Virus genome (UHGV): UHGV-0105671
Length of the DNA: 15,173 nucleotides
Source: a virus
Reading direction: 5' to 3' (one strand)
A program made the position numbers and the translations under genes. Each line of letters starts with the position of its first letter. Within the stretch, counting starts at the first letter, position 1. Below are positions 1 through 7,424 of this stretch, in pieces. Under the pieces are notes generated by a model that was not told where the DNA came from, made no database searches, and was given only the letters and a program-made list of their open reading frames with translations.

Positions 1-95
1 TCGTTACCACTTGGGCCAGTGATTAACACAGATGCTATAGCAATAGCCCCGCCACCAATAGCAGCAGCAACAGCTTTTCGTAATGATGGAGGCAT
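1..95 (-). CDS. SAR endolysin (phage 21 R-type lysozyme), N-terminal fragment; gene continues beyond the left edge
   Basis: Reverse complement of 1..95 translates [31 protein letters not shown], a Gly/Ala-rich signal-anchor-release type N-terminus. The ATG (93..95, minus) overlaps the holin stop, the usual holin-endolysin arrangement. Family call is from recalled SAR endolysin features. Confidence 0.75.
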
Positions 96-310
96 TATCC
101 ACCTCTCGCAGCCTTGCGCTTATCTTCTTTAATCTTGAAATAAAGGTTTGTCAGGTACGTCAGCAGGCCAAATACCAGGCTACCCAGCACTCCAATTGCC
201 GCCCACTGTGAGGGCGTGACTTTATCTAGCAGCTGTAAAAACCAGTATCCGGCACTACCTGCTGAGGTGCCATAGGCGACACCCGTTGTTAACTTATCCA
301 TGGATTTCAT
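95..310 (-). CDS. Class II holin / pinholin (S21-like) with dual-start motif
   Basis: 71-aa ORF beginning MKSMDK (Met1 and Met4, the dual antiholin/holin start pattern), with two hydrophobic segments and a charged C-terminus ([13 protein letters not shown]). GAGGTGGGG Shine-Dalgarno upstream; sits immediately upstream of the endolysin start. Confidence 0.85.
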
Positions 311-420
311 AACCCCACCTCGCAGACAAAGCGGGTGTAAATTGAGGGAATACTACGAAACGTAACAGACTCGGAGTCAGTGAATAACTCAGGTATTGGG
401 TTATCAGCTAATATCGAGAC

Positions 421-455
421 TCAAAAAATGGAAAAACCCGCTCGACGGCGGGTTT
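421..455 (-). terminator. Intrinsic terminator-like hairpin (minus-strand sense) in the leader upstream of the holin
   Basis: Inverted repeat AAACCCGC / GCGGGTTT (434..441 and 448..455) with a 6-nt loop; read on the minus strand it is followed by TTCCATTTTTT. On the plus strand no U-tract follows. Confidence 0.5.
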
Positions 456-871
456 AAGCTGTGTGACGAAGTGACCACTCTTAATAGCATAACCAATTTT
501 TTACGTACGTAAACCACTAAATGATATTTGCGAGAATGCTACCGAGTATTGAAAACACCACTACAAATACATAAGCAAATCTCAACAAATAACCAACAGT
601 GTTATTTTTAGCCGGTTTAAATTGAACCTTCAAATTATAGAGCACTTATAAATAACAGACATTAATATAAATTGGCTAATAGATTTATTTTTATTCAGCC
701 AAGAGCCATGAATAGGATTCGATAGAAAAAAGTTCAGATAAAAATAGAGATCTACTTCACAAATCAAACGAGAAACCAAAACTTACATCTTGAAATAATC
801 ACATTGATTAGATGAATATTTATCGCGCAGTGACATCATTTTTTAATAATAGTTCAAAAAAAGGGCTCACG

Positions 872-1954
872 ATGAAAAAATTAACAGTGGCAATTTCTGC
901 TGTAGCTGCATCAGTACTGATGGCGATGTCTGCTCAGGCAGCTGAAATTTATAATAAAGACAGTAACAAGCTGGATCTGTACGGGAAAGTTAATGCTAAG
1001 CACTACTTCTCCTCTAATGATGCAGATGATGGTGATACTACTTATGCCCGTCTTGGCTTCAAAGGTGAAACCCAAATCAACGATCAACTGACTGGTTTCG
1101 GTCAGTGGGAATATGAATTCAAAGGCAACCGCGCTGAATCTCAAGGTTCCTCCAAAGATAAAACCCGTCTTGCCTTCGCTGGCCTGAAATTCGGTGACTA
1201 CGGCTCCATCGATTACGGCCGTAACTACGGTGTAGCATACGACATCGGTGCGTGGACTGACGTCCTGCCAGAATTCGGTGGTGACACTTGGACTCAAACC
1301 GACGTGTTCATGACTCAACGTGCAACTGGTGTTGCAACTTATCGTAACAACGACTTCTTTGGTCTGGTCGATGGCCTGAACTTTGCTGCTCAGTATCAGG
1401 GTAAAAATGACCGCACTGACGTAACTGAAGCCAATGGTGATGGTTTCGGTTTCTCCACTACTTATGAGTATGAAGGATTCGGCGTGGGTGCAACCTATGC
1501 TAAATCAGATCGCACTGACGGTCAGGTCGCCTATGGTAAGAGCAAATTCAATGCCTCCGGCAAAAATGCGGAAGTATGGGCTGCAGGCCTGAAATATGAT
1601 GCGAACAATATCTATCTGGCTACCACATATTCTGAAACTCAGAATATGACCGTTTTTGGTAATAACCATATTGCAAACAAAGCACAAAACTTTGAAGCAG
1701 TAGCACAATATCAGTTTGACTTCGGTCTGCGCCCATCTGTTGCTTACCTTCAGTCAAAAGGTAAAGACCTTGGTGTTCATGGTGACCGAGACTTAGTCAA
1801 GTATGTCGATGTCGGTGCTACTTACTACTTTAATAAAAACATGTCCACTTTTGTTGATTACAAAATCAACTTAATTGACGATAGTAAGTTTACCAAAACA
1901 GCTGGTATTGATACCGACGACATCGCCGCTGTAGGTCTGGTTTATCAGTTCTAA
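872..1954 (+). CDS. nmpC: General bacterial porin (OmpC/NmpC/OmpD family), prophage-borne moron
   Basis: 361-aa product starting [23 protein letters not shown] (signal peptide ending AQA-AE), with porin motifs and the C-terminal ...VGLVYQF beta-barrel signature. AAGGG Shine-Dalgarno before ATG 872; the ORF-track start at 812 is an unsupported upstream extension. Lies between Q and the lysis genes on the opposite strand, as recalled for DLP12 nmpC. Symbol assigned by family and position, not by alignment. Confidence 0.9.
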
Positions 1955-1962
1955 TCTGACTT

Positions 1963-2005
1963 ACGAAAAAGATATGTTGCGGGAGGCTTTGCCTCCGCAA
2001 CATAT
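1963..2005 (-). terminator. Intrinsic terminator (minus-strand sense) about 180 nt downstream of Q; candidate tR'-like or early-right operon terminator
   Basis: Near-perfect 15-bp palindrome ATATGTTGCGGGAGGC-TTT-GCCTCCGCAACATAT (1972..2005); on the minus strand it is followed by CTTTTTCG. On the plus strand it is preceded by an A-tract but not followed by U's. Confidence 0.55.
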
Positions 2006-2091
2006 AAGTGGAGCCCTCAAGCCACTTCCTTTAGAAGCACTACCTTACTTCTTACTATATAAACCTTCTGTTATATATTACCCTTTATTTT

Positions 2092-2121
2092 GGGGGCGTT
2101 TCCACGCCCCATTTTTAATAA
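2092..2121 (+). terminator. Intrinsic terminator (plus-strand sense), likely porin transcript terminator
   Basis: GGGGGCGT-TTCC-ACGCCCC hairpin followed by ATTTTTAATAA on the plus strand. Confidence 0.55.
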
Positions 2122-2142
2122 CTTTTAGTAAACAATTGCATA

Positions 2143-2526
2143 TCAATTAGAATTATTAGCAACGATATCCATATCTAACCGGATATCTAATGTCATTAAC
2201 ATCCCTTCAATTATGCCCTCAGCCTTCTGTAACCTTTTCCCGATATAACCATCCGAGCAGCAATGCTTACTTGCCAGTGACATGAATGTCATACCACATA
2301 CATAATAATCTACTAATAAATCGTGTAAATCGCTGTTGTTCTTTTTCAGACGGGCCATGCACCCGCAAATGATCATCGCGTCATCGTCACAACATTGCAG
2401 GCGAGATTTTACTTTTGAAGGAATTAATCCCTTAAAACCGGCAGCAATGGACGACCAGGTCACATCCTCATGATTATTTGCCGCCCATGCACCCCAGCGT
2501 TCAAGAACCATCTGAATATCACGCAT
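2143..2526 (-). CDS. Late-gene antitermination protein Q (small 82/DLP12-type Q family)
   Basis: 127-aa product from ATG 2526 (GGAG Shine-Dalgarno 7 nt upstream); the ORF-track TTG start at 2541 is less likely. Cys-rich segment ([16 protein letters not shown]) typical of zinc-binding Q proteins. Position is last gene of the rightward-type operon, before a terminator and the lysis cassette. Confidence 0.8.
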
Positions 2527-2543
2527 CAACTTTCTCCACAAAA

Positions 2544-3539
2544 TCAGGACAGCACACCAATCGCCAGCGCGCGATCGATAAAACGAAATATCAGCTCCAG
2601 TTGGGAACCATACTTCTCTTCAAATGCCACGGTATCCGCATGCAGTTCGTCATGGTGTTTTCTGCACAAAGGCAACACAAAAAGGTCATGCGCTTTTGTA
2701 CCCATTCCACCCTGACCATGACCAATCAGGTGGTGGGCATCATCAGCAGGCTTTCCGCAACATGCGCACGGCTGCGTCTTAACCCAGCGCGTGTACTTTT
2801 CATTAACCCAGCGGCGACGTTTTGGGCGTAACATAAAAGACTCCGGCGACTCCGGATCCACTTTCAGCGCCAGCACCTTTTTCGCTTTATCCTGGATGAT
2901 GCTGGTGGCAGGAACCGAAGGCACAAGATCACTTTCCCGGGTGACAGACGGCACAACAGGCTTCGGTAATCTCAGTGCCTTACGGGCTGCACTTTCCGGT
3001 AAGGCATCCGCCAGATCATTACGAATCAGCCACCAGCACAGTTCAGGCATTGTCACAACGTGACTGTCATCAAAACCGAGATCCCGACGCACAACAGACA
3101 ACACCCAGCGGGCACAGTTATCCGTTGCCATTGATTCCAGCCGTTCCGTGAACTGATCGCGCAACTGGTTATCGCAGTGCCAGCACAGACGGATTGCGCC
3201 CGGCGCGTGTCGCATTGTTGTCATGTTCTCGCTGTGCCAGCCGGAATGAGGCCACTGACAGCCCTTTTCACGAAGTAACCAGCTTTCAAGACATTCCACA
3301 CCACCAGCACGACGGATCACTGCCTCATTGCGGAACACGGCCCGAACGGCAGGATCATCCGCCAGCGGTTGTGATGCCGCCGGAACGGCACCACTGGCGA
3401 AAGATGAATAACGCTCCGGCTCAGGCTCCAGCAGGACACGCCCCTGCATAAACAGGGGCATCAGCTCTGAACCGGGTCTGAACAATACGATCCCCATACG
3501 CGGGGCAATTTCAGGGGTCAGTAGTGCTCTCACGGTCAC
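2544..3539 (-). CDS. DUF968-family prophage protein with C-terminal Cys/His HNH-like motif
   Basis: 331-aa ORF; C-terminal [18 protein letters not shown]...[10 protein letters not shown] resembles a zinc-binding HNH-like core. A DUF968 gene next to Q is recalled from the Qin prophage (YdfU). GTG start at 3539 sits directly after the upstream TGA with no clear Shine-Dalgarno, so the start is uncertain (alternative ATG at Met15). Confidence 0.6.
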
Positions 3540-4357: not shown

Positions 4358-4747
4358 TCAGGCGGCTGCACCCGCCGTTTTCTCGTACTTACTGATAGTG
4401 ATCTCGACCTTCCCTTCCGGGATAACCGGTCCCCACTCCACCAGCATTCTTTTCACCTGGCTGTCGTCTTCCCACACACCCGCGTGGGTCAGGGCGTCAA
4501 ACAGCGCCTTGTTATAGTTGTCCAGATCGCGGATCCGGTTATCCGGAGGAAACAACACGATCTCCACTGAAGCAGGTGCCGACGTTGGTTTTGGCAGACG
4601 ACGTAACTGCTCAACTATTGCTGCACACGCCGCGCTCTGGAATTTTCGCCCCGCCGCGCTTATCAGGCTCTTACCTGCAAACGCCCCTTTGTTGGGGTGT
4701 CGCCAGTACGTGTTCACGCTGGGCGGAAAAGGCAGAATCAGCTTCAT
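4358..4747 (-). CDS. rusA: RusA-family Holliday junction resolvase
   Basis: 129-aa product with the conserved core ...DLDNYNKALFDALTHAGVWEDDSQV... matching the RusA catalytic aspartate region as recalled. ATGA overlap with the upstream gene stop. Confidence 0.8.
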   Translation of the reverse strand: MKLILPFPPSVNTYWRHPNKGAFAGKSLISAAGRKFQSAACAAIVEQLRRLPKPTSAPASVEIVLFPPDNRIRDLDNYNKALFDALTHAGVWEDDSQVKRMLVEWGPVIPEGKVEITISKYEKTAGAAA

Positions 4748-7203: not shown

Positions 7204-7424
7204 GCCGCACCTCCGAGATGCTTCATGTTTTTTCCGGAGCGAAAGGCTATAAGCGGCATACTGACGCGGTAATTACGGCCCAGCGGTTCACAAACCACCT
7301 TCTGACATTCACGGTCAACCAGGCTAACACGTAGAACATGCCCTGCAGGCGTGGTGTACCACTGACCCGGACGAGGACAACGGAAAGTCTGATTGGTAAA
7401 ACGTTTGAAAATATTCCGGATCAT
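7200..7424 (-). CDS. Hypothetical small protein (74 aa)
   Basis: ATGA overlaps with both flanking genes and an AGGTAAGGGGG Shine-Dalgarno upstream. No recognisable motif. Confidence 0.4.
   Translation of the reverse strand: MIRNIFKRFTNQTFRCPRPGQWYTTPAGHVLRVSLVDRECQKVVCEPLGRNYRVSMPLIAFRSGKNMKHLGGAA

Follow-up and report, generated by a model that had tools for sequence, protein, structure and literature searches.

The closest described relatives of the locus analysed here are the nmpC region of DLP12, a prophage of Escherichia coli K-12, and the lc region of phage PA-2. DLP12 displays the order quuD, nmpC (on the opposite strand and split by IS5), essD and rrrD, and in the PA-2 record (J02580) lc is opposite in strand to the lysis genes. 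Lc is the classic converting porin: according to the literature on PA-2, it is expressed in lysogens with OmpC replaced or repressed, a case of lysogenic conversion, and Highton et al. 1985 is cited in connection with the module; a literature search on PA-2, the Lc porin and lysogenic conversion found no paper. The 3' untranslated region (3'UTR) of nmpC/lc is the source of IpeX, a 167-nt RNA that lowers OmpC and OmpF, as stated in three papers (PMC12197685, PMC5069750, PMC10690425). The DLP12 lysis operon is placed under the control of a Q-type antiterminator and RpoE in PMC7918800, which cites Rueggeberg 2013 and 2015. Q-dependent late cassettes comprise a promoter, a sigma-dependent pause element and a terminator, with a Q-binding element located between the -35 and -10 hexamers of the late promoter pR' (PMC6606751, 10.1101/651190). 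Here, we analyse a 15,173-nt stretch of viral DNA, UHGV virus genome UHGV-0105671 (the window), in which positions 311 to 2142 separate a holin gene from the antiterminator gene Q and contain a porin gene in the opposite orientation. The late promoter of this locus quite probably lies at 513..486 on the minus strand, downstream of the porin as seen from Q, and late transcription therefore would not cross the porin.

The window belongs to a lambdoid prophage of E. coli. Its first 2.6 kb (bases 1-2600), used as the query, are 99.6% identical to prophages of several complete genomes, in which the genes are annotated as rrrD, essD, 'porin OmpC', quuD and a DUF968 protein. Of 5426 complete E. coli genomes, 2391 (~44%) contain at least 80% of this query, as do 36 phage records. 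Compared to DLP12 nmpC and PA-2 lc, the locus preserves the Q-porin(antisense)-S-R order, the strands and the terminator hairpins; the K-12 porin is split by IS5, whereas that of the window is intact. The spacer between Q and the porin is ~93% identical to the K-12 quuD-nmpC spacer, and the spacer between the porin and the holin is ~95% identical among the window, K-12 and PA-2. Within this AT-rich second spacer, the window lacks 11 nt (GAAATTATTTT, late strand) at ~596 (between 595 and 597, plus strand) that are present in K-12 and PA-2, and PA-2 displays 16 additional nt closer to the holin. The region is almost certainly the well-known qsr'/DLP12 nmpC/PA-2 lc porin and IpeX module, so that the module itself, a classic converting porin with its IpeX RNA, is nothing new; the useful by-product of its analysis is a comparative placing of the late promoter.

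The original prediction, made from the sequence of the window alone, held that late transcription antiterminated by Q must cross the porin in antisense and that the late promoter could not be placed from sequence. The second statement is right for a single sequence, whereas comparison with other phages places pR' at 513..486. A BLAST search of the window spacers against phages PhiR40_1 and POCJ13 singled out one block, 513..424, which lies beside unrelated genes in these phages. The block comprises the following elements, all on the minus strand:

513..508 and 491..486, minus strand: -35 hexamer TTTACG and -10 hexamer TATGCT of the proposed late promoter pR', with a 16-nt spacer (8/12 consensus match).
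513..500, minus strand: palindrome TTTACGTACGTAAA, candidate Q-binding element between -35 and -10, unique in the window.
484..462, minus strand: initial transcribed region, with the invariant block TTAAGAGTGGT (484..474, unique in the window) and a small hairpin GUGG..CAC, as seen in the cassette alignment.
455..424, minus strand: intrinsic terminator before the holin, tR'-like in the proposed late cassette, with the stem at 455..434 followed by TTCCATTTTT and the T-run at 433..424 (terminator scanner and RNA fold).

The conservation of these elements was followed in an alignment of 14 cassettes and in single-sequence folds. The -10 hexamer is variable, but its A2 and T6 are kept in all 14; the TTAAGAGTGGT block is invariant and the small hairpin conserved; the terminator hairpin and its T-run are kept, with differences in stem sequence and loop length. 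Pair counting on the same alignment returned a nearly invariant terminator stem and no covariation signal, a test that was not used given that the small hairpin was misregistered. The structural reading can be compared with experimental maps of K-12, comprising (i) Term-seq 3' ends (Adams et al. 2021, supplement) and (ii) Cappable-seq start sites (Ettwiller et al. 2016, supplement, in U00096.2 coordinates, which are offset by 777 bp from U00096.3); the supplement of a paper on in vitro transcription start sites obtained by ROSE holds no data on the porin region. The Cappable-seq start at 576452 corresponds to an A at window position 479, exactly 7 nt past TATGCT. In the PA-2 lc record, a 'CRP binding site' is annotated (J02580, positions 1067..1087 of the extracted locus L004) that corresponds to window positions 459..479 and overlaps the invariant block; the block underneath this annotation is also conserved in phages devoid of the porin.

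Cassettes of this type are present in 85 phage records, among them Stx1, Stx2a and Stx2e phages, SfII, SfIV, the cdtI phage, mEp460 and one Klebsiella phage. Among 11 of these records that were inspected, 10 carry a QuuD-family Q upstream, and SfIV has IS1 in the position of Q. A larger set of 251 loci encoding QuuD-family proteins (L005-L255; 240 of them from IMG/VR, collected with three Q subtypes as queries) contains the cassette downstream of Q in 223 cases, or 218 after removal of five spurious matches to the end of the Q2 gene. As for the 28 loci without a cassette, many of the contigs end within ~2 kb of Q, and ~10 had the full 6-kb flank and still gave no match. Four classes of the element between -35 and -10 can be distinguished, each tied to one Q subtype with no exception among the 218 loci:

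Q1 (QuuD), 77 loci: GTTTACGTACGTAAAAA.
Q2, 66 loci: TAACGCGTACGCAAAA (element AACGCGTACGCAAAA).
Q3, 74 loci: GCGGTCCGCA.
Q4 (phiP27), 1 locus: TGCGGAATTCCAAAAA.

The Q subtypes differ chiefly at residues 75-100, a segment that is predicted to resemble a helix-turn-helix of the sigma-region-4 type. We infer from this co-variation that the cassette responds to Q and that the palindrome is a candidate for the element to which Q binds. In 35 Q3 loci the invariant block lies no more than ~40 nt past the Q stop codon (39, 28 or 9 nt, or overlapping it), and these Q-adjacent cassettes display the canonical Q-pR'-tR' layout. In the other 183 loci, 0.6-3.8 kb separate Q from the cassette.

Several observations weigh against this placement. 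The K-12 start at the cassette is weak (score 1.7, barely over the apparent cut-off of the list), the K-12 Term-seq data list no 3' end at the cassette terminator, and both data sets, like all the experimental maps used, come from DLP12, a defective prophage and a different element from that of the window. Most Q subtypes have a poor -35 hexamer, and a clear sigma-dependent pause element could not be named in the cassette: the candidates are AAGAGT within TTAAGAGTGGT, which preserves A2 and T6, and CAGCTT at +19..+24, neither of which is a clear -10 repeat in the alignment. The candidate element is palindromic, whereas phage 21 displays two TGAGCA direct repeats, and the invariant block bears a CRP annotation in the PA-2 record. 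The co-variation between Q and the palindrome could partly reflect linkage, because both lie within 4 kb; the two cargo families common to different Q subtypes are remote homologues, with 31-36% identity, and therefore provide a weak control for it. Early antiterminated transcription running past Q could still cross the porin. Finally, the published DLP12 work describes essDp, an RpoE-type promoter that responds to Q and whose +1 corresponds to window position 824, next to the strong K-12 start at 839.

This last point defines the alternative that survives best, which we nevertheless regard as unlikely. It states that essDp is the Q-responsive late promoter, so that the polymerase would travel ~385-410 nt to the 455..434 terminator and then reach the holin, with 513..486 being a mere part of the leader. 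The features concerned lie next to the start of the porin gene:

861..829, minus strand: divergent promoter zone with a sigma-70-like -10 hexamer TATTAT (851..846) and start site at 839, from the K-12 Cappable-seq start 576081 mapped by alignment.
855..829, minus strand: RpoE-type essDp, with GAACTA (855..850), N16, TCACT (833..829) and +1 at 824, located from the reporter primers of PMC7918800.

The K-12 start at 576081 (U00096.2; ~576858 in NC_000913.3) is strong, with a score of 90.2, and corresponds to window position 839, 7 nt past TATTAT, which speaks for such a promoter, as does the citation of Rueggeberg 2013 and 2015 in PMC7918800; moreover, this alternative likewise leaves the porin outside the late transcript. 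The 839 start lies 33 nt from the porin start codon and is directed away from the porin, toward the holin; it would give a leader RNA of ~400 nt. The promoter zone 829..861 is, however, restricted to loci that carry the porin: PhiR40_1 and POCJ13, whose Q is of the window subtype, are devoid of the zone and keep the cassette. The 35 Q-adjacent cassettes leave no room for another promoter, and the Q families studied so far all load at sigma-70-dependent pauses near the start, not 330 nt downstream. In addition, the published reporter fragment, which spans -121..+650 with +1 at window position 824 according to the primer sequences, also contains 513..424 and therefore cannot separate the two promoters. 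A TGAGCC at -30..-25 of the 839 start, read from the sequence, is similar to the phage 21 half-site TGAGCA and would speak for the essDp alternative; as a single copy, with a different spacing and with the Q21 contact residues not conserved, it was not counted as evidence.

A late promoter and Q utilization (qut) site directly after Q is the arrangement assumed by the original prediction, and we consider it quite improbable. Here pR' would lie within 2006..2142 and the hairpin at 2005..1965 would be tR', with the Q-modified polymerase proceeding in antisense through the porin and through 455..434 to the holin. Three features lie in the spacer between Q and the porin:

2005..1965, minus strand: hairpin 2005..1972 followed by CTTTTTC (1971..1965); by RNAfold, a stem of ~15 bp with one bulge, then CUUUUUCG.
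1955..2126, plus strand: porin 3'UTR, an IpeX-equivalent RNA of ~172 nt with five hairpins, from identity to the K-12 spacer and fold.
2093..2126, plus strand: intrinsic terminator of the porin/IpeX transcript, stem 2093..2110 followed by ATTTTTAATA (terminator scanner).

The position after Q is canonical for pR' in lambda, 21 and 82, and a hairpin followed by CUUUUU at ~140-180 nt past Q resembles the lambda 6S/tR' layout; measured from the Q stop codon, the hairpin begins at 138 nt and its T-run ends at 178 nt. Q complexes are also processive enough for such a journey, and a viable phage, 434B, carries the extra 1.2-kb IS5 in the porin. Nevertheless, the consensus promoter scan of both spacers on both strands found no sigma-70 match of at least 9/12, the best one in 2006..2142 being TGGAAA-18-TAATAT with 8/12; relaxing the scan to 8/12 yields many weak candidates that can be ranked only with outside evidence. 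On the Q strand, the K-12 Cappable-seq list has no start between 573406 (inside quuD) and 575093, an interval that covers the homologous Q-porin spacer. PhiR40_1 and POCJ13 display unrelated sequence after a Q of the same subtype as that of the window, yet they retain the 513..424 cassette. The alternatives of a late start in 2006..2142 or in 456..811, left side by side by the original prediction, are accordingly separated: the former interval has neither a promoter match of this quality nor a listed K-12 start, and the latter includes the proposed start at ~479.

The spacer after Q is, in turn, fully explained by the IpeX 3'UTR on the opposite strand. The segment 1955..2126 folds with a z-score of -5.0, and the K-12 Term-seq data list, on the porin-sense strand, strong 3' ends at 574366/574367, directly past the homologous GGGGCG..CGCCCC hairpin and T-run, together with a second 3' end at 574476, just beyond the first IpeX hairpin. 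Rfam at its gathering threshold returned no match in 311..2142, and no IpeX model was among its matches. The porin-Q interval is nearly all taken up by a documented porin-strand RNA. The hairpin 2005..1965 is probably the terminator of the Q (delayed-early) transcript on the minus strand and the first IpeX hairpin on the plus strand, and not tR'; the K-12 Term-seq data list no Q-strand 3' end at its homologue.

The weakest alternative, in which 513..424 is an insulating terminator with a site for CRP or another regulator that shields the lysis genes from upstream read-through while late transcription starts elsewhere, draws on the CRP annotation of the PA-2 record, the 8/12 promoter match and the weak K-12 signal, and is highly improbable given that (i) where the block lies 28-39 nt past the Q stop codon no other non-coding site is left for a late promoter, (ii) A2 and T6 of the -10 hexamer are invariant while its remaining positions vary, (iii) the mapped start lies exactly 7 nt past this hexamer, and (iv) the upstream element follows the Q subtype, which is unexpected of a host CRP site.

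With the late promoter at 513..486, the locus would operate as follows. The porin unit would be autonomous, transcribed from the plus strand and expressed in the lysogen, with its mRNA ending at 2093..2126 and its 3'UTR constituting IpeX. Q would be the last gene of the early-right operon, whose transcript would end at the 2005..1965 hairpin, so that the Q and porin transcripts would converge with an overlap of ~150 nt. The porin unit would therewith occupy a cargo slot between Q and its cognate late cassette, the latter comprising a weak sigma-70 promoter, a Q-subtype palindrome, an invariant transcribed block with its small hairpin, and a terminator ~25-55 nt past the start. Without Q, transcription would start at ~479 and stop at 455..424, giving a short RNA of ~50-55 nt, whereas in the presence of Q the RNA polymerase loaded at the 513..486 promoter would pass 455..434 and continue into the holin (310) and the late genes beyond it. 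If so, the porin and IpeX could be expressed in the lysogen without conflict with late transcription, and lysis would be independent of crossing 1.7 kb of antisense template.

The genes that flank or occupy this arrangement are readily identified:

95..310, minus strand: holin/antiholin essD, phage-21 S type, first late lysis gene (Pfam PF04971, P21 holin S family, E 2e-35).
872..1954, plus strand: porin of the NmpC/Lc type, 360 aa, with the signal peptide at 872..940 (Pfam Porin_1, PF00267, E 1.7e-151).
2143..2526, minus strand: antiterminator Q of the quuD type, 127 aa (Pfam PF06530, Phage_antitermQ, E 2.9e-53).

The homologue of 95..310 is annotated essD both in K-12 DLP12 and in the 99.6% identical genome. 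The porin matches the Porin_1 profile over its full length (positions 1-337 of 337), scoring 504.8 bits where the cut-off is 23.7; for the NCBIfam 'porin OmpC' subfamily, the score is 521.8 bits and the cut-off 484. The longest open reading frame (ORF) spans 812..1954 on the plus strand, with the true start at ATG 872 by homology to PA-2 Lc and RefSeq annotation. Alignment of the translation to Lc, for which the signal is annotated in J02580, discloses an N-terminal signal peptide, and the protein ends in ...GLVYQF, with an aromatic end residue, both being typical features of beta-barrels of the outer membrane. The window porin and Lc (360 and 365 aa) share 328 of 365 residues (90%), and the differences between them, both indels among these, are concentrated in a few short segments. 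By this resemblance the porin is a gene of the lysogenic-conversion type, as originally proposed, and we infer by analogy that the window allele of porin and IpeX acts like Lc/IpeX: the phage porin would replace the major host porins in the lysogen through the lowering of OmpC and OmpF by IpeX. The region upstream of the porin is AT-rich (GC 0.28-0.31 at 501..900); the promoter of the porin was not located, the best match of the consensus scan being TTGAAA-19-AATATT at 790..820.

The description of a complete OmpC-family porin, antisense between Q and the holin and with its own plus-strand terminator, agrees with the profile matches, the terminator scanner and the K-12 3' ends. The three hairpins predicted to flank it are also found, at or within a few bases of where they had been placed, and the T-run end at 178 nt past Q corresponds to the predicted distance of ~180 nt. 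The porin/IpeX terminator at 2093..2126 stops 16 nt short of the Q stop codon. The simple scanner missed the 1972..2005 hairpin because a bulge interrupts its stem. Four terminator-like hits were counted, compared to 2.4 ± 1.6 in shuffled sequences, so that the count alone is not above chance; independent support is available for two of the three hairpins, that is, 2093..2110 from the K-12 Term-seq 3' ends and 455..434 from the 14 aligned loci.

Q matches the PF06530 profile with 179.2 bits against a cut-off of 26, its homologues are annotated quuD in RefSeq, and over residues 8-87 it is distantly similar to the solved structures of phage 21 Q (6p18/6jnx; E 1.4e-6). The Q21 residues that contact DNA (S93, K94 and H95) are not conserved in the alignment. 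By sequence, QuuD is a member of the phage-21 Q family; given the absence of the phage 21 TGAGCA repeats and the loss of these contacts, a different DNA specificity is predicted for it.

The position of the porin is stable among its closest relatives. Of the 80 IMG/VR contigs carrying the closest Q, 78 display the porin at this position and in this orientation, and the remaining two contigs end at or right after Q; two main alleles, of 360 and 365 aa, are found among these 80. Phage 434B (OL657227, locus L003 3697..7288) is a laboratory derivative of 434 that has acquired the DLP12 Q-nmpC::IS5-S-R segment by substitution; the left crossover is annotated within ylcG. The viability of this phage shows that the module supports lytic growth even when IS5 interrupts the porin. 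Its segment presumably matches the classical lambda qsr' substitutions (Strathern and Herskowitz 1975).

Beyond the porin, the interval between Q and the cassette accommodates diverse genes. In 181 of the 183 loci in which the two are apart, the longest ORF of the gap is antisense; the strand of the longest ORF was used to assign cargo orientation because ORF coverage is confounded by shadow ORFs. The gap ORFs group into 25 protein clusters, the largest of which is the porin (75 loci), found only with Q1. Ten cargo representatives were tested: the PADLOC candidate defence matches comprise PDC-S42, PDC-S20 with a PifA-like KAP NTPase, and PDC-M68A HNH, a weak NYN nuclease match was also obtained, and five representatives have no match. 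Tentatively, and with less confidence than in the promoter placement itself, these data may point to a QuuD-like branch in which (i) palindromes that switch with the Q subtype (ACGTACGT, GCGTACGC, GCGGTCCGC, GGAATTCC) represent a Q-binding mode unlike the direct repeats of phage 21, and (ii) the gap between Q and its cassette is a general hotspot for opposite-strand cargo, the porin and at least 24 other clusters including candidate defence genes, expressed in the lysogen and outside the late transcript. In the literature searched, which did not extend to subscription papers, no description of subtype palindromes or of a cargo hotspot between Q and pR' was found, and a comparison of Stx-phage pR' regions (PMC6266700) reports several regions without the 933W-type pR' site, with no other site defined and none for this Q family. 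The subtype-specific palindrome cassette and the recurrent cargo slot may therefore hold a modest novelty, and the slot offers a practical hunting ground for new prophage defence and conversion genes.

The cassette is also found upstream of stx1 or stx2 in several Stx phages (loci L007, L010, L012 and L014, at ~2440..2600; POCJ13, locus L006, at 4448..4532). In Stx2a_1447 and Stx1_14744, two or three ORFs in antisense orientation lie between Q and the cassette, and in Stx2_EH2201 the cassette lies directly after Q. Since the cassette precedes stx1/stx2 in POCJ13, Stx2a_1447, Stx2_EH2201 and phiP27, the proposed pR' and its candidate Q-binding site would bear on toxin output according to the Q type, and the position of the cassette relative to Q could add to the differences in toxin expression between Q types.

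Two further observations concern other parts of the prophage. Rfam matches at gathering level lie back to back at 8021..8108 (minus strand, C4 antisense RNA, 68.4 bits) and 8133..8209 (minus strand, isrK, 60 bits), both within a long ORF at 7421..8569 (minus strand) that is annotated as a Rha-family regulator in the 99.6% identical genome. The segment 8021..8209 (minus strand) looks, from its sequence, like a c4-ant anti-repressor control region of the P1/P7 type, and the annotated protein start may therefore be too far upstream. In the closest complete genome (99.6% over the query; locus L002, 21071..23037), the early region of the prophage is interrupted by the IS21-family element ISEc62.

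The proposed arrangement resembles three described systems in part. Like the lambda-type switch of lambda, 82 and 21, it combines a PF06530 Q, a promoter closely followed by an intrinsic terminator before the lysis genes, and a subtype-specific element between -35 and -10; unlike it, cassettes of the window type lie mostly 0.6-3.8 kb from Q, and the cargo in between is usually antisense. The lambda 6S RNA is 194 nt long. The terminated RNA predicted for the cassette would have ~50-55 nt, compared to a predicted 258 nt for the pR' transcript of Stx phages. The Stx phages also carry accessory genes in the interval from Q to lysis and make a short terminated pR' RNA (StxS RNA) in lysogens, whereas stx follows pR' on the late strand and is part of the late transcript; the porin of the window precedes the proposed pR', has the opposite orientation and would be expressed from the prophage independently of Q. 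Compared to the morons described by Hendrix and colleagues (lambda bor and lom, HK97 gp15), the porin unit is likewise autonomous, ends in a terminator of its own, has AT-rich DNA upstream, is inserted between conserved genes and is of benefit to the lysogen, and in related phages its slot is empty or occupied by other genes; it differs from them in carrying a regulatory RNA in its 3'UTR and in occupying a recurrent slot between Q and the proposed pR'.

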